A stretch of DNA of 64,000 bases from an uncultured Muribaculaceae bacterium (GTDB lineage: Bacteria > Bacillota_I > Bacilli_A > RF39 > UBA660), in the NCBI GenBank assembly GCA_964616485.1, contig CAZTRB010000005.1:11592-75591 (forward strand), in the 5' to 3' direction. Every line of letters begins with the position of its first letter. Within the stretch, counting starts at the first letter, position 1. Made by a program: the position numbers and the translations under genes. Shown here piece by piece: positions 8,701-39,073 of the stretch. The notes under the pieces are model-generated. The model was not told the origin of the DNA, did not search any database, and worked only from the letters and a program-made list of their open reading frames with translations.

Positions 8701-9193
8701 TAAAAGGAACTTTACCTTCCATCGTAGAAAGATAACTAACGTTACTTAAATCCATTACTTCTTGAACAGAAGAGGATTGTAATATAGCAAACCCCGTCGT
8801 TCTAGCAGCATAGATATCTTGATGATCTCCTAAAATAGAAAGCGAATGACTCGCTAAAGAACGAGAAGCTACATTTATAACACAAGGAAATAACTGCCCT
8901 GCAATCTTATACATATTAGGAATCATCAACAAGAGTCCTTGAGAAGCCGTAAATGTCGTAGCTAAGATACCATTTTGAAGAGCACCATGAACCATAGCGA
9001 TAGCACCGGCTTCACTCTCCATCTCGACTACTTTTATTTTCGATCCCCAATAATTCTTCTTCCCTTCAGCACTCCAACTATCGACATTCTCAGCCATAGG
9101 TGATGCGGGTGTTATCGGATATATACCGGCTAGTTCAGAAAAATTATAAGCGACTAAACTACACGCTTCATTACCATCCATTATCTTATACAT
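5765..9193 (-). CDS. nifJ: pyruvate:ferredoxin (flavodoxin) oxidoreductase, single-chain
   Basis: N-terminus DGNEA...YPITPASPM. Two 4Fe-4S motifs (CIMCNMCAFVCPHG, CTGCGLCVNICPG). TPP motif GGDGWAYDIGYNGLDH. ATG at 9191-9193 is preceded by AAAGGAG; the track's first M is a TTG. Confidence 0.93.
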   Translation of the reverse strand: MYKIMDGNEACSLVAYNFSELAGIYPITPASPMAENVDSWSAEGKKNYWGSKIKVVEMESEAGAIAMVHGALQNGILATTFTASQGLLLMIPNMYKIAGQLFPCVINVASRSLASHSLSILGDHQDIYAARTTGFAILQSSSVQEVMDLSNVSYLSTMEGKVPFINTFDGFRTSHELQKIEVIDFQKVKELINEDALKEFRSRALSINNLTRGTNTNDDIYFQLSEARNKYYDNLPDIVNEYMKKINAITGRDYKPFNYYGAKDATKIIVAMGSICETIKETINSLKGEKIGLIEVHLYRPFSSKYLLDVLPDTVTDIAVLSRTKEHGTSEPLYLDISNVIRETGKNIKVVGGRYGLSSKDTDPSLINAVYKFLDRKDKFNGFTIGIKDDLTNLSLDPITLTVDNETKEVVIYGFGSDGMVSVSKDIIKIVGNNTDSYVQGYFEYDSKKSGSVTKSHMRFASKPIKSTYYVNKPCLVVCTKDSYLSKFDMLDDIVENGTFIVNTFKDDKELFKALSNKDRAIIKNRNIKVYSLNANKISNEVGLGNKINTIMATAIFKVSKLIDFEIAFKEIKKALETLFKNKGTEVIEKNNRAIDRALETLTIVDFSGFDDIEDNKSSFVGKSIFDLINERRGYSIPVSEFEKIVDGSFVGGRSKEEKRNITDTVPVYNEENCIMCNMCAFVCPHGVIRPFLLNEEEVENAPESLKAKLIDANIKDQNLKYAIGVNIEQCTGCGLCVNICPGKKGEKALVMTAIEQINDEETLRETDYLFNVVTEKQVMTLNTVKGSQFATPKFEYSGACAGCGETPYIKLLTQLFGEELVIANATGCSSIYGGSVPSTPYSVPWANSLFEDNAEFGFGMRVSEVIHKDKIKMILRDNLSKINDNDLEVVNSYLEDTNLENSKRLYEIVDSLNIPELLEEKDFIKTKSFWIIGGDGWAYDIGYNGLDHVLASNEDVNILVLDTEMYSNTGGQASKSSKYGGIAKFAASGKETHKKNLAKMAMTYPHVYVATVSLGANMMQTIKAFNEAKNHKGPSLIIAYSPCIVQGIKAGMGTSIEEEKKATESGYFPIFRYNPTTEEFSLDSKADFDKYEEFLDGENRYAALNKVNPEKKDDFYDINKREAIRVYEHYESLKEDKKITE

Positions 9194-10142
9194 CAATATT
9201 TCTCCTTTTTAATCCCTTACTCATCTCTTTAATAATGTATATAGGTCTTTTCTTTATCTCTGAATATACCTTCGATAAATAGGCTCCTATTATTCCTAAT
9301 GAGAATAGTTGAACTCCTCCGACGAAGAAGATTAACCAAAATACTAATAACACACTACTTATAGAGACATCTATTATTAAGTTTACCACAATTATAACGA
9401 ATAAGACAAACGCTACGAGAGAAAATAATAGACTCATTACAAAAGGAATCATCAAAGGAACTGTTGAAAAACCAATTATTCCCTCGAAAGCATACACTAA
9501 GAGATTCCAAAAACTCCACTTAGTATTACCTGCCACTCTCTCGACATTCTTATACTCTAACCACTTAGTCTTAAATCCAACGAAAGTAAACAGACCTTTA
9601 GAATAACGATTATACTCTCTCATCGTCAAGATTGAATCGACTACTTGTCTTCTCATCAATCTAAAGTCTCTAGCTCCATCGACCATCTCTGTCTTAGAAA
9701 TTTTATTTATCAACTTATAAAATCTTCTAGCAAAGAAACTCCTAATAGGTGGTTCTCCTTTTCTAGTCGTCCTCCTACAAGCTACGACATCGTAGTCCTC
9801 CTCTTTAATAAGACGATACATCTCTTCTAAAAGACTAGGTGGATCTTGTAAATCAGCATCAAGCGTCGCTACATAATCTCCAGTCGCATGTTCTAATCCC
9901 GCTAAAACAGCACCTTCTTTACCAAAGTTTCTAGAAAGAGAAATATACTCTACTCTCTTATCTTTCTTCTTTAATTCTTTAATATATTCTAAAGTATTAT
10001 CTTTAGAACAATCATTGACAAAGACAAATTCAAAATTAACTTTCTTTAAGTTTTCTGCTATCCTAGTTACTTCTTCATAAAAGTAAGGAAGCGACTCCTC
10101 TTCATTATAACAAGGAACGACTAACGATATTTTTTCTCTCAT
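9186..10142 (-). CDS. GT2 polyprenol-phosphate glycosyltransferase (GtrB/CsbB-like)
   Basis: VVPCYNEEESL...VNDCSKDNT...LSRNFGKEGA...DADLQDPP, plus two C-terminal TM helices. This is the classic GtrB/CsbB architecture. The gene overlaps the nifJ start by 8 nt. Confidence 0.85.
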   Translation of the reverse strand: MREKISLVVPCYNEEESLPYFYEEVTRIAENLKKVNFEFVFVNDCSKDNTLEYIKELKKKDKRVEYISLSRNFGKEGAVLAGLEHATGDYVATLDADLQDPPSLLEEMYRLIKEEDYDVVACRRTTRKGEPPIRSFFARRFYKLINKISKTEMVDGARDFRLMRRQVVDSILTMREYNRYSKGLFTFVGFKTKWLEYKNVERVAGNTKWSFWNLLVYAFEGIIGFSTVPLMIPFVMSLLFSLVAFVLFVIIVVNLIIDVSISSVLLVFWLIFFVGGVQLFSLGIIGAYLSKVYSEIKKRPIYIIKEMSKGLKRRNIDV

Positions 10143-10143
10143 A

Positions 10144-11592
10144 CTATTCTTTAATCCTTCTTTCTATTTTTTCAAAGATTCCCATATACCTAACATAAGC
10201 GTCTTTTTCCAAAGGAATCTCATAATACTTTTTAAGTTCTTTTAACTCTTCACTATTTATCGGGTTAAACTTATAGACTAGTTTTAAAGGGTTAGCTTTT
10301 ATCTCGATAGTATTTTGATTAGATTCTAACTGTTCTTTAATGTATTCTCCCCTAGTCTTCTCAAAATAAGATATTAACAAGAAAGAAGAGATATAATAAA
10401 TTACTAACAAGCTCGTTAATAAGACGACTCTCTTACTAACATTAAATTCTTTATTACTAACAAATATTGCTAAGGAACTAATTAAAAATAAAGTAAAGGC
10501 ATAATTATTACCAAAGTCCCACTCCTGTGATATAAGACTAAAAAGACTAACTGCAATCGAGAAGATAAATAAGACATTTATTAATCTCTTACTCTTTAAA
10601 TCTTTACTATAATAGTGAAGACTTCTAATCAATAAATAAAAATATAATAAGTAATAAAAAGCATAATACCAATTCTCTACTGCAAAGAAACCGTTATAAC
10701 GATTAATTACTAAAGTTAAAGATACTGGCGAATAGAAAGAGAAATTATAAATAAAAGAAAAATACAAGATGATATTAAATAAGACGATAAGTATTCTAGA
10801 GTAAATCCCTTTAAGTCTTTCCCCTAAATAAAAGTTAATCGGTATCGTCGACAATATTATTAATAATATATTTCTAGAAAAAGTATTTTCGATAAAATCG
10901 GGAATACTATTAAAGACATAGTTTATATCGAGAATAAAAATACTCTCTTTAAAGAAACTAAAGACGAATAATAAAGTCAAGAGATGAAAGATTACTACTA
11001 AGAGATACTTTTTATTATAATTACATATTAAGTAAAATATATTTGCTATAACAAAAGAAATAGCGATGAAGATAGACGAGGTAATAACATAACTACCGAG
11101 AAGTATCATCATGACATAATCACGATAGTTTCTCTCTTTATCTCTTATACTAAATAGACTATAGAAATATATAAAACCTAGTAATATCGGTATCGTATAA
11201 CTAAAAGCACCACTTACAGAGACGTAATTATAAGCAAACATATCGACGCTGACTAAAAGCATTAATAAAAATGTTATCACATACATAAACTTGTTCTTTA
11301 CTATTCCTAATAGAGTGTTGGTCCTAAAGACAAACATCGAAGTAACTATCGCTATTATCAGATTAAACCAAACTTTATTATAAGAGAATATATTAATAAA
11401 AAAACCACTTATTACTCTTCCGTCTAAAATAGAAGAATTTTCTAAATTATAAGCGATCCCCTCTTTACCTAAAGAAAAAAAAGCCCAATCTATTCCACCT
11501 AATGGAGATAAAAAAGCCACTATCAAAAAGAAGAAAAAGACATATGTCGTTAACTTATATTTATAATCTATCGTTTTAATTCTATCATTCAT
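10144..11592 (-). CDS. polytopic membrane protein (482 aa, more than 10 predicted TM helices); GT-C-like glycosyltransferase role inferred
   Basis: Almost entirely hydrophobic segments with a soluble C-terminal tail. It lies 1 nt from the GtrB-like GT2, the usual partner arrangement (GtrB+GtrC, CsbB+YfhO). The function is inferred from context only. Confidence 0.55.
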   Translation of the reverse strand: MNDRIKTIDYKYKLTTYVFFFFLIVAFLSPLGGIDWAFFSLGKEGIAYNLENSSILDGRVISGFFINIFSYNKVWFNLIIAIVTSMFVFRTNTLLGIVKNKFMYVITFLLMLLVSVDMFAYNYVSVSGAFSYTIPILLGFIYFYSLFSIRDKERNYRDYVMMILLGSYVITSSIFIAISFVIANIFYLICNYNKKYLLVVIFHLLTLLFVFSFFKESIFILDINYVFNSIPDFIENTFSRNILLIILSTIPINFYLGERLKGIYSRILIVLFNIILYFSFIYNFSFYSPVSLTLVINRYNGFFAVENWYYAFYYLLYFYLLIRSLHYYSKDLKSKRLINVLFIFSIAVSLFSLISQEWDFGNNYAFTLFLISSLAIFVSNKEFNVSKRVVLLTSLLVIYYISSFLLISYFEKTRGEYIKEQLESNQNTIEIKANPLKLVYKFNPINSEELKELKKYYEIPLEKDAYVRYMGIFEKIERRIKE

Positions 11593-11600
11593 AAAGTCTC

Positions 11601-12080
11601 CTATAACTTATCTATGTAATCCTCTATTAATTTTACCATATTTTTAGTATTACTCTCATACTTTTTAGGTTTAAAAGTCTTAGCTTTTTCTAAAGTCTTA
11701 GAAAGTTTATTAAGATCTTTAAGAGGAAGTATATATTTCTTAGAACTTAATTGTTCGATAATCTCTAATTGATGATCGTTATCATGCTCTTTAAACTTCT
11801 TTAGTCTAGGAGCAGCTATTACAACTTTATTATATTCTAATCCCTGTAAGATAGAACCTACTCCACCATGAGTAATTAATAAACTACAATCTTTAATCAT
11901 CTTAGCAAACTCTTCACGAGAAATAAAATCAAAGATTTTCATATTAGGACTCTCATACTTAGTATGACCTGCTTGGACAATTACTTCTTCTTTAATAGTT
12001 CCTTTCTTTATCTCTCTATCTATTTGCTCTAATAAACGTTTAAACTCTTTATCTTGAGTTCCAAGAGTAACTAATATCAT
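11601..12080 (-). CDS. Alg13-like glycosyltransferase catalytic subunit (Glyco_tran_28_C-type)
   Basis: MILVTLGTQDKEFKRL...ITHGGVGSI... is the typical Alg13/PssE/Cps14G pattern. The ATG overlaps the upstream stop as TAATG. The track's GTG start at 12092 is an alternative. Confidence 0.8.
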   Translation of the reverse strand: MILVTLGTQDKEFKRLLEQIDREIKKGTIKEEVIVQAGHTKYESPNMKIFDFISREEFAKMIKDCSLLITHGGVGSILQGLEYNKVVIAAPRLKKFKEHDNDHQLEIIEQLSSKKYILPLKDLNKLSKTLEKAKTFKPKKYESNTKNMVKLIEDYIDKL

Positions 12081-12550
12081 TAGTAAATCCACCCCCCATA
12101 AACCGCTTTAGGATAAAGTTTTAACATACTCTCCCATTGAACGATAAATAAATCGGCAAAGAGATAGATTAACCTTCCCGTAATCGTCTTACTCTTACTA
12201 TTAGCAAGCGTCTCGATATAAATAATCTTACTACCGAATATTTTACCGACACAACACATTGGTCCTGCCGTATGAGCACCAGTAGTTATGATTACTTTAG
12301 GTCTAATCTTAAAGTAAAGAAAGAGACTCTTAAAAGAATTATATATTAACTTAAAGGGATAAGTTAATAAATGAGCCTTAGTTCCATAGACTAAATACTT
12401 TACTTTTCCCGGATATTTATCTTTTAAAGTCATATTAGATTTAGTCTTTTCTGTTATTATATAGTGATCATATTTCTCAAACATCGAAGACAACTTCATC
12501 ATCTCAGATAAATGACCACCAGTAGAAGATATAAATAAAACCTTTTTCAT
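12080..12550 (-). CDS. Alg14-like glycosyltransferase membrane/accessory subunit
   Basis: MKKVLFISSTGGHLSEM...TTGAHTAGP... is the Alg14/PssD/Cps14F-type pattern. It is translationally coupled to the Alg13-like gene. Confidence 0.8.
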   Translation of the reverse strand: MKKVLFISSTGGHLSEMMKLSSMFEKYDHYIITEKTKSNMTLKDKYPGKVKYLVYGTKAHLLTYPFKLIYNSFKSLFLYFKIRPKVIITTGAHTAGPMCCVGKIFGSKIIYIETLANSKSKTITGRLIYLFADLFIVQWESMLKLYPKAVYGGWIY

Positions 12551-12557
12551 AAACCAC

Positions 12558-13772
12558 CTATTTTAGTATTTTAAACCAATCTTTCTCTATATTTTTAGCT
12601 AAGTACTTTTGAGATATTTTAAGATTCTCTTTACTTAGTTTTTCTCTATACTTATTATCTTTTAAAATAAGAACGATTTTTTCTTTTAAAAGGCTTAAGT
12701 CTCTATTAGGTATCAAAACATCACTATTATCTTCTAAGACTTCACATATTCCCTTAGCACTATCGAAACCAATAACAGGAAGTCCATAACTAGCAGCTTC
12801 GATTACGACTAAACCGAAAGACTCCGAGAATGATGTAGTTACGAAAAGAGAACTATCTAACATATACTTTTCTATCTTATCTTTAGATAAAAATCCGAGT
12901 AATTCGACATTATCATTTAAAGATAATTTCTTAATTTGTTTCTCTAAATTACTTCTTTCAGACCCATCACCGATTAGGTAAAGCTTAATATTAGGTATAT
13001 TTTCTCTAACCAAAGATAATACTTCTAAAAGGTCAGAGTGTCCTTTTTCTAGAGATAATCTTCCGACATTGATTATGTTATTTGTCTTTAATAGAGATTT
13101 TTTCTTCGGCAATTCGTCTAAGACATTGGGTATATAAAGACACTCTACATTCGTCTTATCTTTATAAAAGTCTCTGAGTTCTCTAGATACTAAGATAAAA
13201 TAAGAAAATCCTTTAATAGAAGATACTAACTTTCTAACATATTTTTTATCGTTATTATGATAGTTGTGATCGGTAACAATTTTTACAATATGTCTATTAC
13301 CATAAGTAGATACTAATCTATTATGGAAGGTCCTAGTAGTAATTACATACTTGCTATTTATTTTAATAATAGCATTAATATTTAAAAGACTTTTTTTAAA
13401 TAAGAGAACAAGAGCTATATATGCTTGTTTTAATATACCAAAGATATTCTTATTAGTTAATTCTTTTTTAAACTCTTCTCTATTAGGTTTAGAATCAATT
13501 AAATATTTTATCTTAATCTTCTTATCAAAATAAAACGCGGGTTGTTCTAGCAACTTATAAGTAGTTATAATCTCTATCTCAAACTTTTTATCTAGCATCT
13601 TACAAAGAGAAGACAAGTACTTTTCGATACCACCATATCCTAAATGAAGAGCTAATATCGTTATCTTATTTTCTTTTAGTTTTCTCTTGTTATATTTTAA
13701 AATTAAAAACACTAAAAATAAGATAATAACAAAAGACAATAATACTAATAACAGTTGCAATATATCACACAC
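12558..13772 (-). CDS. GT4-family glycosyltransferase with N-terminal TM helix
   Basis: C-terminal Glycos_transf_1 signature GRLSLEKG...SFSESFGLVVIEAASYGLPVI (EX7E). GTG start with a weak RBS, so the start is uncertain. Confidence 0.8.
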   Translation of the reverse strand: MCDILQLLLVLLSFVIILFLVFLILKYNKRKLKENKITILALHLGYGGIEKYLSSLCKMLDKKFEIEIITTYKLLEQPAFYFDKKIKIKYLIDSKPNREEFKKELTNKNIFGILKQAYIALVLLFKKSLLNINAIIKINSKYVITTRTFHNRLVSTYGNRHIVKIVTDHNYHNNDKKYVRKLVSSIKGFSYFILVSRELRDFYKDKTNVECLYIPNVLDELPKKKSLLKTNNIINVGRLSLEKGHSDLLEVLSLVRENIPNIKLYLIGDGSERSNLEKQIKKLSLNDNVELLGFLSKDKIEKYMLDSSLFVTTSFSESFGLVVIEAASYGLPVIGFDSAKGICEVLEDNSDVLIPNRDLSLLKEKIVLILKDNKYREKLSKENLKISQKYLAKNIEKDWFKILK

Positions 13773-13814: not shown

Positions 13815-13847
13815 GCAAGAAAAAAGATATCTTTTTCAAGATATCTT
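13815..13847 (-). terminator. rho-independent terminator of the giant pilin-like gene
   Basis: 10-bp stem AAGATATCTT/AAGATATCTT (13824-13847) with a 4-nt loop, overlapping the stop. It is followed on the minus strand by TTTTTCTT. Confidence 0.7.
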
Positions 13848-16800
13848 ATCCCCAATTTTCACAACCACAAGCTGCTGTTCTACAAGAATTATTTCCTCCT
13901 ACACAAGTACTATAAGTGTATAGACAATTATTCCATCCACATGCACTATGTTGACAATAATAGTATCCGGCACATCCACAGCAATCATTATAACAGGTTG
14001 CAGCTTCCTCACCAGAAACACAACATGTTGTCGAAGTTTTATACCATGTTTGGCCACCCGAACTAGGTTTGCTACTTGCACACTTAGTTCCGCACCCATA
14101 ACCTCCTGTGTTTTGGTAACATTCATAGATATTTCCTTTAGTTTTACAATATGTTCCGCAACAAGAGTAACTAGTACATCTTTTATTTCCAGTACATCCG
14201 CATCCGGCAGTATAACAAGAATTATATCCTCCAACACAAACGGACGGGTTACCTGTTAAACAAGAATTCCATCCACAATTAGCATGTTGACAACTCTTAT
14301 TGGTAACACAACTCGATGTTATAGAACAAGTTCCTGTATTACCCGCTCCATCTGTAACCGTGTATGTCTTTGTACCTTTAACATTTGAATCATTATATGT
14401 AGCTGGAGATACTCCACTTGCATTATCAGAAGTTGTAACTTTTACGGTTATTCCATTAGCTCCATTCGCTGTTTTAACAGCAGTACAAGTAGGATTAACT
14501 GTATCTCTTTTTATCGTAAATACATTAGATGCAGCAGATGCATTACCTGCATTGTCAATTGATCTTACATAGAAATTCCAATTCCCATCCCAGTTTATCG
14601 TCCATGGATTTGACATTGCTGTCCAATTTGCAGCATCATGACTATACTGATAACTAGCAATTCCAGAACCAGTTCCGTCCGAAGATGATGCAGTTATTAC
14701 AACATTAGATTTTGTCCAAGTGCCTGAAGTATAAGAACCTAGATTGATCGTTGGTTTTGAAGGTTTTGTTGCATCTCTCTTTATTGTTACGACATTTGAA
14801 TTATCACTTATGTTACCAGATTTATCTATAGCCCTTACATAAACGTTCGTAGATATATCTGAACTAATTGTCCATGGATTCGACATCGTCGTCCATCCCG
14901 ACGTCCCATTAGTACTATATTCATATCTATCTAAGTTAGTATCCGATGAACTCGCTGTTATGACAATATTTTGATTTGACCATGTATTAGATGTATATGT
15001 AGTACCATCTGCTTTTTTCAAGGTTAAAGTTGGTTTCGACGGTTTCGTCGCATCTCTTTTAACATTAAAGACGTTTGACACATCACTTATATTACCAGCA
15101 CCATCAGTAGACCTTACATAGTAATTACTTTCGACATCTGTACTAATTGTCCATGGATTTGCCATATTTGTCCATCCTGAAGTTCCATTAACACTATATT
15201 CATATTTACTTATTCCTGAAATATTATCAGTTGAACTTGCCGTTACGACTACATTGCCAGAGGTCCATGTCCCTGAAGTATAAGAACCTAAATTGATCGT
15301 CGGTTTCGATGGTTTAGTAGCATCCCTTTTGATAACTACGGCATTAGATACATCACTAACATTTCCTGAGGAATCGATTGCTCTTACATAGATGTTTGTC
15401 GAAGTATCCCAGTTAATCGTCCATGGATTTGTCATAGCCATCCATCCCGATGTTCCGGTCGTACTATATTGATATCCAGCTAAGTTATCATCAGTTGAAC
15501 TTGCTGTAATGATTATATTTTGATTTGACCATGTATTAGATGTATAAGTAGAATTGTCTGCTTTCTTCATTGTCAATGTTGGTTTTGATGGTTTCGTCGC
15601 ATCTCTTCTAACAATAAATGGATTTGAATTATCACTTACGTTACCAGCACCATCAGTCGATCTGACATAGTAAGTTTTATCGGTATCGAAGTTTATCGTC
15701 CATGGATTTGACATCGTCGTCCATCCTGAAGTTCCATTGTTACTATATTCGTATTTGCTTATTCCCGAAATATTATCAGTTGAACTTGCCGTTACGACGA
15801 CATTACCAGAAGTCCATGTACCAGAAGTATACGAACCTAGATTAATCGTCGGCTTCGATGGTTTAGTACCATCTATTTTTACCGTTTGGTTGTTCGGACA
15901 AGTAACACAGTTTCCTGCTCTATCACAAACCTCGCCCGGTCCAGCCGTCGTCGTATTTATATCACTAGTATAAGGTTTAGTAATTGTCGTATTTACACAA
16001 CCACTACCACTATCACTACAAGTACCAATTATATTTACAGTCGTCTTACTCCATGCAGAACTTCCACCACTACTTACACAAGTTGGTTTCGTCGTATCGA
16101 TCGTATCGACGACTACCGCTTTATTAGTAACATGTCCAGCTTGGTCCTTAACCCACACATAATATGTACCATTATCAGAAGCTATATTTGGAACACCAAT
16201 TCCAAAACTAGTTCTTGCCGATATAGCGGTAAATGTCGGTTGTGTCGTCGAACTCTTATTTATACCGTAACCGATTATTCCTGAATTAGTATCTGTTCCG
16301 GTAAATACTATCGTTCCGTTAAGTCCGTCTTGACCAGTATCGATTATCGTCGAGTACGCTACATCCCAACTTACTGAAGTACCAGAACCCGTCAAGTAAA
16401 CGTGTCCGAAAGTCGAGAACGTTCCCGAACTACCCGCTTTTTGAATATAGATATATTCTGCCCAATCTCCAGTTCCAGCTTGTGGAGTGATCCAGTAGAC
16501 GCTTGAACCTGTACCGGTAGAATTAGAAGCTCTTTGAATAGTATACCCAACTGGTATCTTTGCAATTATTCTATGAGCATATACAGCATTAGCTCTCGAA
16601 GTTACAGTTTGAACATAACCTCCTAATCCAGGAGAACTGACACCATTTGTCGTTATTCTCATAACGTATGAACCATATGGGTTAGATTGAGCTACTCTAG
16701 CGTGAGTAACAGTACCATTTCCACTATTATTATATACGCTAAAGTTATTTGTCCCAGAAGCAAACGTCGGATCTTTGAATAACGGAGTCCCTGATATTGC

Positions 16801-18897
16801 TTCTGATATAACCGGAGCATTTTTATCTATTCTTACGATTTGGTCAGCCTGGCAAGTAGTACAGTTTCCTGCATTATCACAAACTTGTCCAGGTGATTCA
16901 TTAGTCGAATTTATATTAGAAGTATATGTTTTCGTTACCGTCGAATTCACACAACCACTATCAGCGTCATTACACGTTCCAGTAATCGTGACATTCGTCG
17001 TTTTCCATGTAGCGCTTCCACCACTATTTATACATGTTGGTGGTTCGTTATCGGCAGTTATCGTTTGGTGATACCATCCGCCACTATTTGGCGATTGAGT
17101 TATGACGTTACCAGCATTATCAACTAGTCTCGTATAAACGGTATATACTCCTCCAGGTAAACTAACAACGTGTTTATTTTGTCCAGTAATAGATGTAATG
17201 CCACCTACAGCAACACCGTTTCTTTCCATCTTGACTTGGAACTCTTTAATACCACTCAAATTATCAGCAACCGTAATTGTCAACGTTTGATTAGCACTAT
17301 ATACTCCCGTTAATAAGCTATAACTTGCAGTAGGAGCCGTCTTGTCGATTCTAGAAATCGTTACTGATGAAGGATCAGATGATAAACCGACAACGTTTCT
17401 CGTACGAACTTGAGCATTCGTTACATTTGACGAATAAATATTATAATTTGTCGATTGCCAAGAAGCGCCATCATTAAACGAATACTCAGTCGTTCTAACT
17501 AATCCAGCTCTTGGAATCAAGTTAACTTTTACATTGTTCTTAGTCCAGATACCTGGAGAAGCAGCGACTAAATCAATTCTAGAAACATTGTAAGATACAC
17601 CACTTAGTGCTCCTAAAACTAATCTAAAGTTAGAGTATTGTCCAACCGAAGGTAAAATAAACTCTATGTCTCTAGTACCTTGAATCATTAATGCTGATAC
17701 TGAGAGTTCATTCCCATTTTGATCTTTAAAGTAGACTCTACCCGTCGTCGTCGTTGGAATATTAGTATTTAAAGTCACAGTTAATTTCTTAATACCATTA
17801 AATGTCGGATACGAAGCAGTACCAAACGTTATAACTGGGTTTGTCGTAGTCGTCGTTAGTATTGTACCCGCTAAATTTAACCCCGAAAGAGTATATTCAT
17901 ATTGGTTAGGGAACAATTGATATGCATACTCAACATCAAATTCTGGTTTTGGAACACCCACTCTTACGTCGATTGAACAAATCCCCTCATTACCCGCTTC
18001 GTCTTTAACATAACCTACGACTGTCGTAAGTCCCATATCTAATTTAAGACTATCTTTTTTATTATAATCAATATTCTTTATACTAGTACCAAGTCCATAA
18101 GTTAAAAGTCCACTATCAGCATCATCTTTAGTATCGAACTTAACATAAACGTCTCCCGAATACCACCCTAACGCTTCTAAGTTTCCGCCATCTCTAATAA
18201 GTGTACAAGTTGGAGGAGTCTTATCGACATATACTTTTACCGGACAACTAGTTTGATTTCCACTCTTATCAACTATATTAATAAAACTCTCAGTAGTAGT
18301 CGTACCAAATGTCTTAGAGAATCTAGCTAAACGACAACCACTAGTTTGGTCACTACAACCAACACTAATTGTTCTATTTTCCTTAGTCCATGTAGTAGAT
18401 TCACCTATGACACTACCACATACCGGATTATCATTATCAGATTCATACTTAGAACAAGCCGAACCTTCAGTAGAATAATTTTCACAATACAAACACGCTC
18501 TATATTCGTAGTCACCACTAACTTTGCTTACCTCAACATAACTAAGTAAACTATTACAAAATCCATCTGTTTCCGGATCTTTTAATTCATCAGAGTAACC
18601 TTTTTCAATAACATCACTCAAATAGACAATAGATCTATCTCCATCGCCTGGTAAATTACAAGTGTAATCATTATTAGCAATACAATCAACAACCATGTTA
18701 TTCGTAGCTGTTTGCATATTCTTTTCATAAGCTAAATAAGTATTATCCTTACTACTTCCAATATAATTAGAAATAGCCGGAACTGTAATGATTGCCAATA
18801 TAGCAATTATCACGATAACGGCGATTACTTCTATTAAAGTAAACCCTTTCTTTTTCTTGGCTTTTTCCAAAATTTTACTAACAGTTTTCTTTCGCAT
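13846..18897 (-). CDS. giant (1683 aa) modular protein with an N-terminal type IV prepilin (class III) signal, multiple Ig-like modules and a Cys-rich C-terminal domain
   Basis: The start at ATG 18895-18897 is supported by AAGGAG 7 nt upstream and by a TTGACT-17-TAAAAT promoter lying inside the track's longer ORF. Leader MRKKTVSKILEKAKKKKG, then FTLIEVIAVIVIIAILAIITVPA (G-1, F+1, E+5; encoded at 18829-18846). The body has recurring D.SG(I/L)..Y and D.AGN strand motifs. No LPXTG. Confidence 0.9.
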   Translation of the reverse strand: MRKKTVSKILEKAKKKKGFTLIEVIAVIVIIAILAIITVPAISNYIGSSKDNTYLAYEKNMQTATNNMVVDCIANNDYTCNLPGDGDRSIVYLSDVIEKGYSDELKDPETDGFCNSLLSYVEVSKVSGDYEYRACLYCENYSTEGSACSKYESDNDNPVCGSVIGESTTWTKENRTISVGCSDQTSGCRLARFSKTFGTTTTESFINIVDKSGNQTSCPVKVYVDKTPPTCTLIRDGGNLEALGWYSGDVYVKFDTKDDADSGLLTYGLGTSIKNIDYNKKDSLKLDMGLTTVVGYVKDEAGNEGICSIDVRVGVPKPEFDVEYAYQLFPNQYEYTLSGLNLAGTILTTTTTNPVITFGTASYPTFNGIKKLTVTLNTNIPTTTTGRVYFKDQNGNELSVSALMIQGTRDIEFILPSVGQYSNFRLVLGALSGVSYNVSRIDLVAASPGIWTKNNVKVNLIPRAGLVRTTEYSFNDGASWQSTNYNIYSSNVTNAQVRTRNVVGLSSDPSSVTISRIDKTAPTASYSLLTGVYSANQTLTITVADNLSGIKEFQVKMERNGVAVGGITSITGQNKHVVSLPGGVYTVYTRLVDNAGNVITQSPNSGGWYHQTITADNEPPTCINSGGSATWKTTNVTITGTCNDADSGCVNSTVTKTYTSNINSTNESPGQVCDNAGNCTTCQADQIVRIDKNAPVISEAISGTPLFKDPTFASGTNNFSVYNNSGNGTVTHARVAQSNPYGSYVMRITTNGVSSPGLGGYVQTVTSRANAVYAHRIIAKIPVGYTIQRASNSTGTGSSVYWITPQAGTGDWAEYIYIQKAGSSGTFSTFGHVYLTGSGTSVSWDVAYSTIIDTGQDGLNGTIVFTGTDTNSGIIGYGINKSSTTQPTFTAISARTSFGIGVPNIASDNGTYYVWVKDQAGHVTNKAVVVDTIDTTKPTCVSSGGSSAWSKTTVNIIGTCSDSGSGCVNTTITKPYTSDINTTTAGPGEVCDRAGNCVTCPNNQTVKIDGTKPSKPTINLGSYTSGTWTSGNVVVTASSTDNISGISKYEYSNNGTSGWTTMSNPWTINFDTDKTYYVRSTDGAGNVSDNSNPFIVRRDATKPSKPTLTMKKADNSTYTSNTWSNQNIIITASSTDDNLAGYQYSTTGTSGWMAMTNPWTINWDTSTNIYVRAIDSSGNVSDVSNAVVIKRDATKPSKPTINLGSYTSGTWTSGNVVVTASSTDNISGISKYEYSVNGTSGWTNMANPWTISTDVESNYYVRSTDGAGNISDVSNVFNVKRDATKPSKPTLTLKKADGTTYTSNTWSNQNIVITASSSDTNLDRYEYSTNGTSGWTTMSNPWTISSDISTNVYVRAIDKSGNISDNSNVVTIKRDATKPSKPTINLGSYTSGTWTKSNVVITASSSDGTGSGIASYQYSHDAANWTAMSNPWTINWDGNWNFYVRSIDNAGNASAASNVFTIKRDTVNPTCTAVKTANGANGITVKVTTSDNASGVSPATYNDSNVKGTKTYTVTDGAGNTGTCSITSSCVTNKSCQHANCGWNSCLTGNPSVCVGGYNSCYTAGCGCTGNKRCTSYSCCGTYCKTKGNIYECYQNTGGYGCGTKCASSKPSSGGQTWYKTSTTCCVSGEEAATCYNDCCGCAGYYYCQHSACGWNNCLYTYSTCVGGNNSCRTAACGCENWG
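14500..15873 (-). repeat. five in-frame tandem repeats (~270-279 bp, 90-93 aa each) in an A-B-A-B-A pattern inside the giant gene
   Basis: Units begin D(A/G)TKPSKPT at 15873, 15603, 15324, 15054 and 14775 (complement). A-type units read INLGSYTSGTWTSGNVVVTASSTDNISGISKYEYS. B-type units read LT(M/L)KKAD..TYTSNTWSNQNI(I/V)ITASS. DNA copies are similar but carry many synonymous differences. Confidence 0.9.
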
Positions 18898-18931
18898 AAT
18901 AAAGCTCCTTGTATTATCTTTTATATATAAC

Positions 18932-18960
18932 ATTTTAATATCTTTATACATAATAGTCAA
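18932..18960 (-). promoter_or_regulatory. sigma-A-type promoter of the giant pilin-like gene
   Basis: Complement: TTGACT (18955-18960), 17 nt spacer, TAAAAT (18932-18937). About 35 nt upstream of the ATG. Confidence 0.5.
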
Positions 18961-19105: not shown

Positions 19106-21121
19106 ATGAAGAGATTTTTATTCGTGATTCTTTTGATATTGCTTCTTTTTAATAGTGGAACAGCACATGCAGAAATTATTAAGACTGGTCGGGCTATAGC
19201 CGATGTTGGGCTTAGAATTAGAGCTACTCCCTCTACTAGCGGAACACAATTAGGAACGATACCCTATGGAACGATAGTTAGAATCATCGGTGAAGCGAAT
19301 GGTTCGGGATGTAACGATCCTTGGTTTCAAGTAATTTACTCTACTGGTAATAGTAATATAAACGGTTATTCTTGTTCTACTTATATAACGGAAATTACGG
19401 AGTATGATACTGAAGAGAATACGCCTACAACACCACCAGTAAATAGCGAGGACTTCGAAGCCTACTTAACTTCACAAGGATTCCCAGAAAGCTACAAAGT
19501 CAAACTAAGAATTTTACACGAACAACATCCTAATTGGATATTTGTCGGTATAAAAGTAAGAGAGTCTTGGCAAACGTCTTTAAATCTTCAAGGCGAAGAT
19601 GGAAGAAGTACATTAAATGTTAATGCGGCAAGAAAGGCTTTGGGGCAAGAGGGATATTTATCGACTGCAGCGGGACACTATAACTATGAGACTGACACTT
19701 TTATTCCTAAAGATGGTACTTATTGGTTTCAAGCTAACTCAGATGCTATTGGATATTACCTTGACCCAAGAAACTTCATGGACGAGAAAAATGTTTTCAT
19801 GTTCGAAAGTCTTTTACAAAACGATGCTATTCATACTAAATCAGTAGTCGACGGGATCTTGTCGAGTGACTTCATGAAACAATATTCTAATCATTTCATG
19901 AAAGGTGCAAGAGACTACAACGTTTCTGCTACGCACTTAGCATCACTATCTAGACAAGAAGTAGGAATTACTAACGGTAACATTGTTACTAACGGAAAAG
20001 CCGGAGTATTATCAGACGGAGTTAACTATAACGGTTACTATAACTTTTTTAATATCGGAGCATCATCATCGGGAGATCCGAAGTTAAAATCGTTACAAAG
20101 CGCTAAAGCTCGCGGCTGGAATTCACCTGAGAAATCAATCGTTGGTGGAGCGGCTTTTATATCTAGTGGTTATATTAATGCCGGACAATACACGGCTTAT
20201 CTTCAAAAGTTTAACGTCGATCCTAATGCTACTAAAGGAATATGGCATCAGTATATGACTAACATAGCGGCATTATCTTCGCCGGCAATTACGACATATA
20301 ACTCATATAATAATCTCGGTTTCATAAACCATTCATTTATATTCTCGATTCCAATATTTACTAATATGCCAGAAAGCACTTCGTTACCTCCCTTAGGTAA
20401 CCCAAATAACTGGCTAAAAGAAATAAAGATAAATGGTATCGCTTTATCTAGTTTCTACGGTGGTACCACTAATTACACCATCGATATTCCTTACGAGGAA
20501 GAGATTACAGTAGAGGCTAAAAAAGTAAATAGTAACGCTACTGTATCAGGAACTGGAACAAAAGCCTTAACGGAAGACAAAACCACTTTAACGATTAAAG
20601 TCACTGCTCAAAACGGAAGCGTTAAAAACTATACGGTAACAGTTAATCGTGGGATAAAAGACGATCCTAACTTAGAGATAGATCTTCTATTAAAAGATGT
20701 CTTAACTGATAGCAAATACAAATACGATAGTAAAAATCTTTGGGGAATAACTCTAGGAACTAGCGTTAAGAGTCTTACTAGTAAAATAAAAGGAAAATAT
20801 AAAACAGTAAGTGTAAATATAAAAAATAAAGACGGCAATACTAAAACAGACGGTGTCATAGTTACAGGAGATAAAGTAACGATAACGACTAAACAAGAAT
20901 CTACTACTATCGAAGTAATAATCTTTGGTGATACTAATGGAGACGGATACATCTCGGCAATCGACATCTTAAGCGCTCAAAAACATATCCTTGGATATAC
21001 TACTCTTTTAGGAACTAGTTTCAAAGCGGCAGACATAAATAAAGACGGTGTCATATCAGCTTATGACTTACTACAATTTCAAAAACACGTCTTAGGTTAT
21101 ACTAATATAAGCCAATCATAG
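19106..21121 (+). CDS. secreted peptidoglycan N-acetylglucosaminidase (GH73-like) with SH3b, cadherin-like beta-sandwich and C-terminal dockerin
   Basis: Sec signal ending AHA|E. SH3b-like GLRIRATPSTSGTQLGTIPYGTIVRIIGE. Glucosaminidase-like core (YLDPRNF...HLASLSRQEVG...YNFFNIGA). Cadherin-like module at 20413-20652. Dockerin duplicated F-hand: GDTNGDGYISAIDILSAQKHILG and AADINKDGVISAYDLLQFQKHVLG (20927-21105). Confidence 0.85.
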   Translation: MKRFLFVILLILLLFNSGTAHAEIIKTGRAIADVGLRIRATPSTSGTQLGTIPYGTIVRIIGEANGSGCNDPWFQVIYSTGNSNINGYSCSTYITEITEYDTEENTPTTPPVNSEDFEAYLTSQGFPESYKVKLRILHEQHPNWIFVGIKVRESWQTSLNLQGEDGRSTLNVNAARKALGQEGYLSTAAGHYNYETDTFIPKDGTYWFQANSDAIGYYLDPRNFMDEKNVFMFESLLQNDAIHTKSVVDGILSSDFMKQYSNHFMKGARDYNVSATHLASLSRQEVGITNGNIVTNGKAGVLSDGVNYNGYYNFFNIGASSSGDPKLKSLQSAKARGWNSPEKSIVGGAAFISSGYINAGQYTAYLQKFNVDPNATKGIWHQYMTNIAALSSPAITTYNSYNNLGFINHSFIFSIPIFTNMPESTSLPPLGNPNNWLKEIKINGIALSSFYGGTTNYTIDIPYEEEITVEAKKVNSNATVSGTGTKALTEDKTTLTIKVTAQNGSVKNYTVTVNRGIKDDPNLEIDLLLKDVLTDSKYKYDSKNLWGITLGTSVKSLTSKIKGKYKTVSVNIKNKDGNTKTDGVIVTGDKVTITTKQESTTIEVIIFGDTNGDGYISAIDILSAQKHILGYTTLLGTSFKAADINKDGVISAYDLLQFQKHVLGYTNISQS

Positions 21122-21130
21122 GAGGACTTT

Positions 21131-22546
21131 ATGAAAAAAATCTTTAAACCATTTACAATGGTTTTCCTTTTTACAGTGATGTTTTTGTTTAATAATAACG
21201 TCTTGGCAGCTAACTTAAATGTCTCGATAACCTCGAGTACTAGTAGAGCGGTAGTTGGTAACAATATTACTTATACGGTTAGAGTGTCTTCTAATGCTAA
21301 ATTTGGTAATATTCATTATAGATTAGAATATGACACTTCTAAGTTAACTCATGTAAGTGGAACACTAAATAATTTTGATTTAAATGTTATCGATAAATAT
21401 TCTGCTACTTACACTTTTACTTTTAGAGCAAAAGCAAGTGGTAATGCTAGAGTAACGTTCGTAATCAACGAAGCCTTAGAATTAAATAACAATTCTTTTA
21501 ATTATAATACTAGAACCAATAAAGATATAACGATCATAACTCAACAACAATTAGAAGCTAGCTATAGTAAAAACAACTACCTATCATCTTTAAAAATAGA
21601 TAATTTTGAAATGACACCGGCTTTTAATAAAGATACTTTAGAATACTCGATAGAATTAGAAAACGATGTTAAATCAATAAATATTAGCGGTACTAAAGCA
21701 GATTCAACAGCATCAGTCGAAGGTTTGGGTGCACATGAATTAATAGAAGGACCAAATAAAATAAATATAAAAGTTACTGCCCAAAACGGTGCCTCTAGAA
21801 CATATACGATAAATGCAACGGTAAAAGAATTAAATCCCATTATCGTAACTGTCGACGGCAAAGAATATAATGTCGTTAGAAAAAAAGACCTAATAAAAAA
21901 ACCTAATAGCAAATACGAAGAGACGATTATACAAATAAATGAAGAAGATGTCCCAGCTTTCATAAACGAGACGACTAAAGTAACATTAATCGGGCTTAGA
22001 GATGAAGAGGACAACATTTCTTTATTTAGTGTTAAAAATGATACGTATATTCCTTACCAAGAATTCGCTTTTAGTAGTATAATATTTACGGAAGAAAATT
22101 TAGACGATCTTCCTAAAGGTTATACTAAAACTAAATTAAAACTCGAAGAAGTAGAAATAGACGCTTATCAAGATAACTCTAACTTAAATTTCTACCTAAT
22201 AAAAGGAGTGAACATTGAAACGGGAATAACTTCCCTATATCAATATGATAGTAAAGAAAACACTCTTCAAATATATAATGATTCATTAGCTAAACAAAAT
22301 AAGGAATTAACTAATAAGAATAATATTTATCTTTATACTATAATTGGTCTAATAGCACTCATAGCTATATCTTCCGGAACGATATTAGTAAAGACTTTAA
22401 AAAATGAAAAACCTAAAATAAAAAAAGAAGAGAAGACCGACAAAAAAGTCAAAGAAAAAGTAGAGGAACCGAAAGAACCTATCATAGAAGAAGAGAGTCT
22501 AACAAAACAAATAAAGAAAATGAAAAAAAATAAAAAACAATCTTAA
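21131..22546 (+). CDS. membrane-anchored surface protein with cohesin-like N-terminal domain and cadherin-like beta-sandwich
   Basis: Sec signal (VLA|AN). Residues ~27-135 (21209-21536) read VGNNITYTVRVSSNAKFGNIHYRLEYDTSKLTHVSGT, which fits the cohesin pattern. Cadherin-like module at about 21580-21825. C-terminal TM helix (IYLYTIIGLIALIAISSGTILV) and a Lys/Glu-rich tail. Confidence 0.7.
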   Translation: MKKIFKPFTMVFLFTVMFLFNNNVLAANLNVSITSSTSRAVVGNNITYTVRVSSNAKFGNIHYRLEYDTSKLTHVSGTLNNFDLNVIDKYSATYTFTFRAKASGNARVTFVINEALELNNNSFNYNTRTNKDITIITQQQLEASYSKNNYLSSLKIDNFEMTPAFNKDTLEYSIELENDVKSINISGTKADSTASVEGLGAHELIEGPNKINIKVTAQNGASRTYTINATVKELNPIIVTVDGKEYNVVRKKDLIKKPNSKYEETIIQINEEDVPAFINETTKVTLIGLRDEEDNISLFSVKNDTYIPYQEFAFSSIIFTEENLDDLPKGYTKTKLKLEEVEIDAYQDNSNLNFYLIKGVNIETGITSLYQYDSKENTLQIYNDSLAKQNKELTNKNNIYLYTIIGLIALIAISSGTILVKTLKNEKPKIKKEEKTDKKVKEKVEEPKEPIIEEESLTKQIKKMKKNKKQS

Positions 22547-22561
22547 TATACTGGAGGAATT

Positions 22562-24667
22562 ATGAAAAAGAAAAAGATCAAATACCAAAATATATTCACA
22601 ATACTTTGTATCTTAAGCAGCTTATATCTAATCCAATCTATCTACTTATTTTCACAAATAGAAACAGTTATTAGATACTCTGTAATTGGTATTTTAGTTC
22701 TTTTCGACTTCTTTATATTAATTAAGATGTTTTTCTTAAAGACTAAAAAAACTATTATATATATTATAGTCTTAGTCTTTTTTAGTGGAATATATATATT
22801 CTTAGGATACAATTTAAATAGAATATACTCTTATTTTACTAACTTAAATAAGACGATTACTTATTCGACTAGTTTAGTTACCTTAAAAAGTACTAAAGAT
22901 GTCGATCTAATAACACTTAAGAATGCTAATATAGGTCTTATCGATGATCCGACTTCTGAAGATGGACACATCTTAGCACAAGAGATAATAAAGAAAGAGA
23001 GTTTATCTAAAAACAATAATATTATCTATAGGCATTCATATACTGAACTTATATTAGATTTATATGATAAAGACTTAGACTATATTTTTCTTCCTAGTTC
23101 TTATGTCGATATCTTTAGTACGATCGAAGGTCTTGAAGATATAGAAGATAAAATTAAGACTATTCTAACGACAGAGATGGAAAAGACTAAAGAAGAGGCA
23201 CAACTATTAGGAGATCCTAAGAATATAGATGAACCATTCACGATGTTATTAATAGGTATTGATTCAACGGCTGATGGTATTCAAAATGCCGACTCATTTA
23301 ATGGAGATTCTCTTATGGTACTTACTTTTAATCCTAAGACGATGACTGCTACGATGTTAAGTATACCTAGAGATACGTATGTTCCAATAGCATGCTTTCC
23401 AAATAAAATAGAAAATAAGATAACTCATTCTGCTTCTCGTGGTACAAGTTGTGTTATAAATACTATTCAAAACTTATTGGATATAAAAATAGACTATTAT
23501 ATGAAGATTAACTTTACTGGTCTAGTCGAACTAGTCGATGCCGTCGGTGGAGTCGAAGTCGATGTTCCTTATAGTTTTTGTGAACAAAATAGTAAGAGAA
23601 AATTCGGTAATAGTACTATCTATGTAAAAGAAGGTTTAAGGACACTTAATGGTGAAGAGGCCTTAGCATTATCTAGAAATAGAAAGAATAATTATGAATA
23701 TTGTTCTAAAGAATGGACTAAGGGAAATAGAAGTGACTTTGTAAGAGCAGAGAACCAACAAAAAGTAGTTCAAGGAATATTAAATAAAGTAAAAGGTTAT
23801 ACTTCTATTAACAAAATAGAAGAGTTATTAAAAATAGTCTCTAAAAACTTAGATACTAATATGAGTGAGAAGACGATTTTCTCATTCTATAATATTGCAA
23901 AGGATGTCATGATATCATCGTCTAATTCTGATATACTATCTATTCAAAGATTAGAGATAGTCGGATGGGGACAAACGATATACGATGAGACATCTAAGTT
24001 ACAGTTGTGGAATTATGTTCCAAATAAGAGAAGTACCGAAGATGTAAAAGAAGCTATTAAAATAAATTTAGGACTGAAAAAACATGAGTTAATCAAGACT
24101 TTCACTTATTCTTGGAAAGAAGAATATACTCAAAAGATTCCAGGTAAAGGGCCTTATAGTATATATACTACTTATGACTTGCTAAAAGACTTTACTAACA
24201 TGAATATAACGGATGTCGAGCTATGGGCTGAAAAAAACGACATTACTTTAGTCATAGAAGAAGTAGAAAAGGTCGGTTACAAAAATGGTACAGTCGTTAA
24301 TCAAGAGTATCCAGTTAATAAGAGATTAGATTTAATACCCGATAGAACATTAAAAATAGAAGTAGTCAAGAATAAAGATACTAAAATAGACTGTTTAAAA
24401 GACGAGGAAAACATTATTTGTCTAATACCTGACTTTATCGGTAAAACTAAGAAAGACGTAGCTCTTTGGGGAAATAAGTTCTCTAATCTAGTAGATGTTA
24501 AATATGTAGAAGTGGAGTCTGAAGAAGAAGAGAATACGATAATAGATCAAACGATTAAAGGTATTACGATAAAAGAATTACTTGAGAATAAAGAGAGTAT
24601 CACTTTTACTATCGTTAAGAAAAAAGAAATAATACCACCTATCGAAGAAGAAATGGAAGAAGAATAA
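22562..24667 (+). CDS. LytR-CpsA-Psr (LCP) family cell-wall glycopolymer ligase with a long C-terminal extension
   Basis: N-terminal TM helices. LCP core LLIGIDS...GDSLMVLTFNPKT...SIPRDTYV...INFTGLVELVDAVGGVEVDV...GEEALALSRNR. The roughly 200 C-terminal residues are PASTA-like or unassigned. Confidence 0.85.
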   Translation: MKKKKIKYQNIFTILCILSSLYLIQSIYLFSQIETVIRYSVIGILVLFDFFILIKMFFLKTKKTIIYIIVLVFFSGIYIFLGYNLNRIYSYFTNLNKTITYSTSLVTLKSTKDVDLITLKNANIGLIDDPTSEDGHILAQEIIKKESLSKNNNIIYRHSYTELILDLYDKDLDYIFLPSSYVDIFSTIEGLEDIEDKIKTILTTEMEKTKEEAQLLGDPKNIDEPFTMLLIGIDSTADGIQNADSFNGDSLMVLTFNPKTMTATMLSIPRDTYVPIACFPNKIENKITHSASRGTSCVINTIQNLLDIKIDYYMKINFTGLVELVDAVGGVEVDVPYSFCEQNSKRKFGNSTIYVKEGLRTLNGEEALALSRNRKNNYEYCSKEWTKGNRSDFVRAENQQKVVQGILNKVKGYTSINKIEELLKIVSKNLDTNMSEKTIFSFYNIAKDVMISSSNSDILSIQRLEIVGWGQTIYDETSKLQLWNYVPNKRSTEDVKEAIKINLGLKKHELIKTFTYSWKEEYTQKIPGKGPYSIYTTYDLLKDFTNMNITDVELWAEKNDITLVIEEVEKVGYKNGTVVNQEYPVNKRLDLIPDRTLKIEVVKNKDTKIDCLKDEENIICLIPDFIGKTKKDVALWGNKFSNLVDVKYVEVESEEEENTIIDQTIKGITIKELLENKESITFTIVKKKEIIPPIEEEMEEE

Positions 24668-38018: not shown

Positions 38019-39059
38019 TTACATAATTAACGCTTTTTCATTCAAAACATAGCGATAAGCCTTATTTTCATGGATAATAATAAACGTACTTTCTCTTTTC
38101 CTCTTACTCTCAAAAAACAAGATAGGTATCCTTAATTCATCTTCGATATCGATTAGATCTTTAACGTTAGTTATATCCATTACATTAAATTTACTTAAGT
38201 CTGGTTTTTTAGCCACTTCAGCGATAACATTGGCATAAGTAGTTAAGATCCTATCTCTTTCTTTAGTGTAAGGGTCAGCGTTTTTAAGGTGTAGTACTCT
38301 CTTTAAATAATAGAAGAATAAGACAAATGACACCATTACTAAGAATATTCCAATAGTAAGACCGTACTGATTAACGATGTTATCTTTACTAAAAACATTT
38401 TTATTCTCATTGAAAGATCCCGTTTTATCGACACTTACTACCGTATCCAAAAGAGGAATTTTAGCTGTCATAGTGTGAAGATCAGCGACTTTCTTAGCCG
38501 TTTCTTTAGTCGTAATAAGATTGTTTATTTCAAAGACAACTTTTATATAAGCCTCTGTTAAGATAGAACTTTCTTTTCTAAACTCCAAAGCTTCTTCTTG
38601 ATATTCTTTATAATCGATAGTCGTTTTATAATCAAAGAACACGACTCCTGTCTCTTGTTTTATGACTTTATTTTTAGGAAACAAAACGTCTTCTCTCTTC
38701 CATAATTCTTCCGTTTGAAGGCCGTCTTTATAAGTGTTAACTAAAAACAAAGATATAGAATATTCCGCTTCAGAATCAATTAGATTAATAGACGTAAGGT
38801 CATAAGTAAATTTTAAATCGATATAGTCGATATATTTAGCTAGAATCTTATTCTTATTAATATATTCATCTTTATATAAAAAGTTATCTTTTAGTCTAAA
38901 ATTATACTCGATATCACCGAAAGATTTATAATCGACAACGATATTATTTTTGTTATTTTCTATACTCGTACTATCATAAGTTATAATTGATCCGGCAAAA
39001 AAGAGTAATACCCCTAGTAATAATAATACTATACTTTCCTTTTCTTTAGTTCTTTTCAT
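38019..39059 (-). CDS. DUF5305-like two-TM protein (346 aa), last gene of the accessory operon
   Basis: N-terminal TM helix, an extracytoplasmic domain of about 200 aa, a second TM helix (YGLTIGIFLVMVSFVLFFYYL), then a cytoplasmic C-terminal domain. This topology next to SipW-type peptidases matches what I recall for DUF5305. The assignment is unverified. Confidence 0.55.
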   Translation of the reverse strand: MKRTKEKESIVLLLLGVLLFFAGSIITYDSTSIENNKNNIVVDYKSFGDIEYNFRLKDNFLYKDEYINKNKILAKYIDYIDLKFTYDLTSINLIDSEAEYSISLFLVNTYKDGLQTEELWKREDVLFPKNKVIKQETGVVFFDYKTTIDYKEYQEEALEFRKESSILTEAYIKVVFEINNLITTKETAKKVADLHTMTAKIPLLDTVVSVDKTGSFNENKNVFSKDNIVNQYGLTIGIFLVMVSFVLFFYYLKRVLHLKNADPYTKERDRILTTYANVIAEVAKKPDLSKFNVMDITNVKDLIDIEDELRIPILFFESKRKRESTFIIIHENKAYRYVLNEKALIM

Positions 39060-39073
39060 CTTGACCTCCTATT

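Follow-up and report, generated by a model that had tools for sequence, protein, structure and literature searches.

Modular pilins, in which functional modules are grafted onto the C-terminus of a pilin, are an established class displayed on type IV filaments; their closest described examples for our purposes are two from Streptococcus sanguinis, PilB (vWA module) and PilC (lectin module), and the most extreme modular pilin in a 2021 InterPro survey has 860 residues (PMC8179133). Known cystine ladders have three rungs in 18-37 residues, as in the theta-defensins and in the 37-residue ladder-like loop of Chlamydomonas HAP2 (PMC6327110). Firmicutes generally keep cysteine (Cys) out of exported proteins (PMC2823432). 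Here we describe a Cys-rich module, with C-x4-C as its family's dominant Cys spacing, at the C-terminal end of a giant modular pilin-like surface protein encoded in a 64,000-nt (64-kb) stretch of contig CAZTRB010000005.1, which we refer to as the window. On balance we favour, with modest confidence and from sequence patterns, a reading in which this tail is an extracellular, disulfide-stapled, antiparallel two-stranded stalk of tunable length that bears a variable head on a giant modular pilin-like fibre, probably for ligand recognition or adhesion.

An earlier note on this DNA had claimed 28 Cys among the last 154 residues of the protein, and our count in the minus-strand translation agrees. 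Cys makes up 18.2% of the module, alongside 23 Gly, 17 Thr, 15 Ser, 14 Asn, 14 Tyr and 4 Trp. The CC and CGC pairs and the near absence of hydrophobic core residues that had been pointed out were also found, as three CC pairs, four CGC motifs and only eight aliphatic residues (1 Ile, 2 Leu, 5 Val), with no Phe or Met. Neighbouring signal-peptide proteins contain 0-2 Cys each, in line with the claim that such a density is unusual for an exported protein, and the mean Cys content of the other 48 open reading frames (ORFs) of the window is 0.60%; the density of the module is therefore far beyond chance. The giant protein is a marked exception to the exclusion of Cys from Firmicutes exported proteins. 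The plus-strand reading of 13849..14310 was rejected, its frame being full of stops, and two small ORFs that overlap this stretch, 13899..14237(-) and 13948..14259(+), simply shadow the Cys-rich frame. The parts of the module are as follows.

13849..14310, minus strand: Cys-rich module, residues 1551-1704 of the 1,704-codon ORF 13846..18960(-); 154 aa, 28 Cys.
14197..14292, minus strand: N-arm, residues 1557-1588, CQHANCG-WNS / CLTGNPSVCVGGYNS / CYTAGCG (head, 3-aa spacer, 'b' unit, head).
13957..14196, minus strand: core or 'head', residues 1589-1668; 80 aa, 14 Cys.
13864..13956, minus strand: C-arm, residues 1669-1699, CQHSACG-WNN / CLYTYSTCVGGNNS / CRTAACG.
13846..13863, minus strand: terminal CENWG and stop codon.

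The internal duplication reported earlier is present, both quoted units being found verbatim. They lie at residues 1557-1589 and 1669-1700, all 7 Cys of each align in register, and as two diverged 7-Cys units they flank the 14-Cys core. The units are only 76-78% identical in DNA, which makes this an old duplication and not one made by the assembly. The C-arm is one residue shorter than the N-arm (31 aa versus 32 aa), and in each arm the 'b' unit comes second, counted from the base. In alignment A4, the invariant positions are C4, Q5, C9, C14, L15, C21, G23, G24, C28, C33 and G34. The window core is a reduced version of the P0006/P0013-type core, and the window copy is the family's minimal version (head-3-b-head, 14-Cys core, head-3-b-head).

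The earlier note had not recognised the family, and neither did our searches: sequence and profile searches of Pfam, NCBIfam and PDB with the window tail and the tails of all relatives gave nothing significant, the PDB profile searches gave no match at E <= 10, and a word-index homology search with the tail alone gave no match. A phmmer search of 1.84 billion cluster representatives returned the protein itself (P0001) together with P0002 (2.3e-14), P0003 (9.5e-10) and P0006 (9.3e-5); P0004, P0005 and P0007, from the exhaustive search, were rejected as compositional false positives. Profile searches of a 5.8-billion-cluster index added P0008-P0014, and a metagenome scan with the unit alignment added one locus, L020, which brings the relatives found across both collections to about a dozen. 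No match was obtained in a scan of viral contigs, and the Cys module is found in none of the 17 genome loci that share the rod domains of the carrier. The C-x4-C-G module is real and, judged from these searches, very rare and uncatalogued, and its sequence bears an unusually clear structural signature.

In most relatives the module lies at the C-terminus of a protein with a prepilin-type N-terminus; P0003, for example, is the end of a 1,125-residue pilin-like ORF. P0012 has an apparent Sec-type signal and Listeria-Bacteroides repeats. In P0014 the module is internal (residues 285-579), between a glycine-rich region, with a weak ALK_LTK_GRD match (E 0.005, below the cutoff and not spanning the junction), and a 44-residue C-terminal segment; the ends of this module are similar 'b' units, YNSCLTGENTCEAGYVNGTC and YSPCATGSNTCTGGYENGSC. 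Such an arrangement would fit a module inserted into a host-domain loop, which is suggestive only. We also observed that the ORF containing P0003 (L018, 7832-11209) has a run of N, translated as X, inside its repeated six-Cys region, so that only its last 402 residues appear in the output of the gene caller; repeats that break assemblies may leave family members under-counted in databases.

The relatives share one plan, an N-arm of C-x4-C-G heads, a variable Cys-containing core (48-140 residues, 6-14 Cys) and a C-arm of the same heads, with spacers of 3 or 6 residues between heads that give units of 10 or 13 aa. Several members also have a special 'b' unit, CLTGxxTCxGGYxx. Past the position of the window's CENWG, relatives extend with a tail of about 25-30 aa, and its conserved form WGxWSxWSxxxCx(6-9)CExRTxY ends P0002, P0003, P0006, P0008, P0009, P0011, P0013 and L020. 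The window protein has no such tail, and no remnant of it was found in the 73-nt intergenic spacer downstream of the gene. A thrombospondin type-1 reading of this tail, based on its WxxWxxW likeness, was rejected, with no Pfam TSP_1 match in any tail; a PDB search with the tail profile gave chance matches only (E 0.21 and 1.1).

These relatives bear on whether the module is genuine. The earlier note had named a frameshift or a low-quality assembly as what would undo its observation, and it might be argued that the tail is such an artefact, or a non-functional low-complexity stretch, from the missing WSxWS tail and from the fact that a single genome carries the exact sequence. The frame is open over 1,704 codons, independent assemblies hold homologues with the same architecture and the same pattern of conserved Cys, and the two units of the window copy differ at 22-24% of nucleotides. 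Between P0006 and L020, at 12% amino-acid divergence, 27/27 Cys are kept and the ratio of nonsynonymous to synonymous substitution rates (dN/dS) is 0.51. We exclude a frameshift or assembly artefact on these grounds, and regard the artefact explanation as a whole as vanishingly improbable.

Evidence for how the module is built comes from comparing its arms, which was done with explicit arm boundaries for each protein and three spacer classes (3 aa, C-type 6 aa and V-type 6 aa). The lengths of the N-arm and C-arm, in residues, are as follows.

P0002: 143/143.
P0003: 103/103.
P0012: 77/77.
P0011: 56/56.
P0014: 40/40.
P0006 and L020: 31/31.
Window: 32/31.
P0016: 18/17.

The spacer order of the N-arm equals that of the C-arm reversed at 31/31 positions, compared with 13/31 when both are read in the same direction. 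Shuffling within each protein gave probabilities of 0.0008, 0.005, 0.25, 0.017 and 0.34 for a full mirror match, and the index of the 'b' unit, counted from the base, is equal in both arms (2/2, 4/4, 2/2 and 1/1). All arm units retain their N-to-C orientation, so neither a direct duplication nor an inverted DNA repeat can yield the mirror order, which instead requires compensating changes or insertions at mirrored positions and hence implies in-register pairing of the arms. The antiparallel, in-register arrangement of a cystine ladder is thereby seen at the level of the sequence pattern only. The internal module of P0014 is compatible with N- and C-ends that would meet.

A different account of the same arms is that they are rods of self-contained disulfide mini-domains in tandem, unpaired with each other and equal in length through duplication history or concerted evolution. 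The two units of the window are direct duplicates, P0002 has 33-aa (13+10+10), 6-Cys super-repeats of the size of EGF (epidermal growth factor) or TNFR (tumour necrosis factor receptor) domains, and a C-x4-C pair is able to close a local ring, all of which fit this account. Duplication or gene conversion would yield direct symmetry, not the mirror order seen at every compared position; moreover, the arms are equal to the residue in six members, and the 'b' units and CGC-type spacers stand at mirrored positions. We consider independent tandem mini-domains unlikely. The duplication in the window is best read as the two arms of one mirror-symmetric hairpin and not as two independent knots, and since it is the relatives that display such arms, 'knotted', the term used in the earlier note, is not the best description.

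The other part of that proposal was that the Cys form disulfides or else bind metal. All 10 of 10 modules have an even number of Cys, and so, taken separately, do 10/10 cores; CGC motifs have their 'extra' Cys in mirrored pairs only, and C-type spacers always face C-type spacers. In the tail, Gly, Asn, Ser, Thr, Tyr and Trp are abundant and hydrophobic core residues nearly absent, and the full set of 27 Cys is retained between the diverged P0006 and L020. These patterns favour disulfides over metal binding for the Cys of the module. If the Cys were instead reduced in an anoxic habitat, they might act in sequestration, sensing or electron transfer by binding soft metals (Zn, Cu, Fe or others), a possibility to which the extreme Cys density, a probable anaerobic host with no Dsb-like gene in the window and the one His in each unit of the window copy would lend themselves. 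The His of the CQH motif is Asn in homologues, Tyr and Trp make up 12% of residues, unlike metallothioneins, and neither CxxC/CxC metallothionein motifs nor knuckle motifs are present. Some modules have Cys counts that do not divide by 4 (26, 18 and 42), though all counts are even. The best Pfam zinc-finger matches (E = 0.1-0.29) are far below cutoffs, and no Fe-S family matched better than E = 0.1. We found no positive support for a Zn or Fe-S-like site, and a metal-thiolate module seems distinctly unlikely; metal binding is not supported on these grounds and is excludable by chemistry only.

Regular C-x4-C spacing also resembles some Cys-rich cores of ribosomally synthesised and post-translationally modified peptides (RiPPs), and the Cys might be cross-linked after translation by thioether or sactionine-type bridges made by radical-SAM (S-adenosylmethionine) enzymes, in the manner of SCIFF or ranthipeptides. 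Neither the window nor the related loci examined encode a radical-SAM, SPASM or lanthionine enzyme; these loci were L018/L019, L021/L022, L023 and L024, checked through Pfam families, and L020, checked through its ORF list only. A small precursor peptide would be expected for this chemistry, and the module ends an exported protein of about 1,700 residues. We judge such cross-linking very improbable.

Returning to a paired, disulfide-stapled hairpin, we can sketch how it might work. The prepilin-type N-terminus would direct export and anchoring in a type IV filament or in the membrane, and about 1,450 residues of beta-sandwich domains would serve as a rod carrying the module away from the cell. 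The N-arm would run outward and the C-arm back, antiparallel and in register. If, as we infer, the Cys are oxidised and paired across the arms, then Cys every five residues would staple the arms into a rigid two-stranded ladder, the stalk, whose length would be set by the number of unit pairs, 2-3 in the window and as many as 13 in relatives. Between the arms, the Cys-rich core would fold into a small disulfide-bonded head at the very tip, offering a variable surface that is probably ligand-binding, that is, adhesive.

The variability of the head is evident at one related locus, L024 (1-9029), with the order tig (partial), P0002, tig, P0016 and lon. Here a 3,087-nt repeat is 99.94% identical. 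The carrier genes, a pair, match each other at 99.9% identity across 1,740 nt, and the trigger-factor gene upstream has been duplicated along with them. The pair differs only in the Cys module, which consists of 13+13 units with core A in one copy and 2+2 units with an unrelated core B in the other. The locus is either a true tandem duplication with cassette exchange or an assembler's join of two strain alleles, and with paralogues or joined alleles alike the module behaves as a swappable cassette on a constant carrier. A related observation comes from L002, where a modular pilin (9443-12058, plus strand) has no C-x4-C-G module and ends, in its last ~95 residues, in another domain with 8 Cys, HSHTDSC...WKCTKCG...YSYCG...LTCG, whose HxH and CxxC resemble a zinc site. 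The tips of these carriers seem, from such comparisons, to be interchangeable Cys-containing mini-domains.

Several points weigh against the stalk-and-head reading. AlphaFold2 gave no usable model: the predicted local distance difference test score (pLDDT) was 33 for the tail of the window protein, run with an alignment of 8 sequences, and 31 for the module of P0002. In the P0002 run, only the WSxWS tail, modelled as beta strands, rose above a pLDDT of 50. Short as it is, the window copy does not separate mirror from direct order, and the hairpin inference therefore rests on the relatives, a small family partly related by descent, whose arm statistics are not fully independent. The tandem pair at L024 could join two strain alleles, as noted. 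Within the window we found neither pilus machinery nor any thioredoxin-like or thiol-disulfide oxidoreductase gene, including the DsbA/BdbD-type enzymes that the earlier note had proposed to look for. The organism looks like a fermentative anaerobe (pyruvate:ferredoxin oxidoreductase, acetate kinase, formate-tetrahydrofolate ligase), and with an anaerobe-like host and the general exclusion of Cys from Firmicutes exported proteins (PMC2823432), oxidation is not guaranteed. The argument for an adhesive role consists of the position and the variability of the module.

The carrier itself is a modular protein whose distal module, as the earlier note had stated, caps a pilin-like giant with a prepilin-type signal at its N-terminus. 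Its remaining features are as follows.

13846..18960, minus strand: entire gene for the giant, a modular pilin-like protein of the surface; 1,704 codons, counted from the earliest possible start.
18778..18897, minus strand: class III (prepilin) signal peptide and hydrophobic alpha1-N segment, MRKKTVSKILEKAKKKKG/FTLIEVIAVIVIIAILAIITVP.
15859..17043, minus strand: region bounded by two six-Cys domains, with residues 717-957 in between.
16813-17043 and 15859-16089, minus strand: two copies of a 77-residue six-Cys beta-type domain, found by direct reading.
14488..15858, minus strand: rod of about 5-6 repeats of about 90 residues each, OmpL47-type/Big-like beta domains.
14311..14487, minus strand: two-Cys Ig-like 'adaptor', residues 1492-1550, CTAVK...TYTVTDGAGNTGTCSIT.

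The public protein P0001, which sits on a single 98.6-kb contig, is identical to the window protein, with the ATG at 18951 as its start; translation most likely begins at M22 (MRKK), position 18897. The N-terminus of the giant, KKKKG/FTLIEVIAV, is that of a type IV or modular pilin, with matches to Pfam N_methyl PF07963 (29.3 bits, cutoff 21.2) and NCBIfam TIGR02532 (27.8 bits, cutoff 16.3), as well as sub-threshold matches to ComGC and GspG. The six-Cys domain (PPTC..SGGS..W...I.G.C.D..SGC...C.N.GNC..C) matched no Pfam or NCBIfam model in whole-protein scans and recurs in relatives L018 and L020. With two six-Cys domains and 12 pilin-proximal Cys, the giant as a whole, beyond its tail, departs from the exclusion of Cys. 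The rod matches NCBIfam NF047446 barrel_OmpL47 (147.5 bits, cutoff 40) in 6 stretches and Pfam Big_7 (27.1 bits, cutoff 24.1), consistent with OmpL47/Ig-like repeats, and the Cys-rich tail lies outside the NF047446 and Big matches. The adaptor precedes the Cys module in 8/10 complete modules, the exceptions being P0011 and P0014, and is shared with P0002, P0003, P0006 and P0012 (alignments A1 and A2), P0012 bearing it on a non-pilin protein with a Sec signal. Because the module usually travels with this adaptor, it is a portable tip unit. At L002, the homologous carrier, which has no such tail, is encoded about 2.5 kb downstream of a T2SSF platform gene (163.9 bits) and a Peptidase_A24 prepilin peptidase gene.

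Directly downstream of the giant, on the same strand, we observed a block of glycosyltransferase (GT) genes (9186-13772, minus), with the following members.

12558-13772, minus strand: GT4.
11601-12550, minus strand: PssD/PssE-type split GT.
10144-11592, minus strand: 482-aa ORF with no family match.

The same block holds a GT2 resembling PgfS (313.9 bits, under the 500-bit cutoff). In Streptococcus mutans, PgfS is part of a system for the O-glycosylation of adhesins. Given the very high Ser/Thr content of the giant, the adjoining glycosyltransferases might glycosylate it. Divergent from the giant (19106-24667, plus strand) are genes for three envelope or surface-associated proteins.

SH3, cadherin-like and dockerin domains: 671 aa, 2 Cys.
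Cadherin-like: 471 aa, 0 Cys.
LytR-CpsA-Psr and PASTA domains: 701 aa, 7 Cys (1.0%).

The dockerin has no visible cohesin partner, and its context is non-cellulosomal. A further cluster (38019-43482, minus strand) has genes for a DUF5305 protein, for an S26 signal-peptidase-like one (395 aa) and for a protein of 171 aa whose N-terminal part bears a hydrophobic segment. It also holds several ORFs without a family match and a WXG100-like protein of 100 aa (24 bits, below the cutoff), and could represent either a fibre operon of the SipW/TasA type or a small ESX-like one.

We put forward tentatively, as a possibility somewhat short of even, that the module represents a new architecture: a length-tunable cystine-ladder stalk, with 2 to 13 mirrored unit pairs per arm and far longer than the ladders described so far, that would carry a swappable tip mini-domain on type IV pilin-like fibres of uncultured anaerobic Firmicutes or 'Tenericutes'-labelled bacteria. 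Exported Cys would be expected to be avoided in such a lineage, so that the organism would need an unrecognised extracytoplasmic route of oxidative folding. It is more speculative that disulfide exchange might link the thiol- or disulfide-dense tip covalently to Cys-rich proteins of a host or partner, such as mucins. If the architecture is borne out, it would be a new bacterial surface building block, in which a rigid ladder stalk is lengthened by compensated insertion of unit pairs with a variable head on top. It would also be a clear exception to the exclusion of Cys from exported Firmicutes proteins, pointing to a so far unrecognised oxidative-folding capacity in an uncultured anaerobe lineage, and would widen the idea of a modular pilin to include a carrier of 1,700 residues whose tip module is uncatalogued. 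The failure of AlphaFold2 makes the module a useful hard target for structure determination and prediction, and the mirror rule gives precise predictions that can be checked cheaply.

Compared with known systems, the giant resembles modular type IV pilins in that its homologous carrier at L002 stands beside prepilin peptidase and platform genes. Unlike the modular pilins surveyed, it has 1,704 residues, about twice the 860 of the largest, with more than 12 added domains and an uncatalogued terminal module, and its incorporation into a filament is here only predicted. EGF-like, laminin-EGF and TNFR repeats, as well as the beta-helix of the Tenebrio molitor antifreeze protein, are extracellular, nearly coreless, rigid and elongated, with regularly spaced Cys; the C-x4-C-G module differs from these families in its units of 10 or 13 aa and its mirror-paired arms. 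With cystine ladders it would share two antiparallel strands joined by parallel disulfide rungs, as implied by the mirrored pattern of Cys and spacers, though it has no sequence similarity to the theta-defensins or the HAP2 loop. Unlike known ladders, the one proposed here would have 6 to more than 26 Cys per arm, in units of 10 or 13 residues, with a folded head and a length that varies between paralogues.

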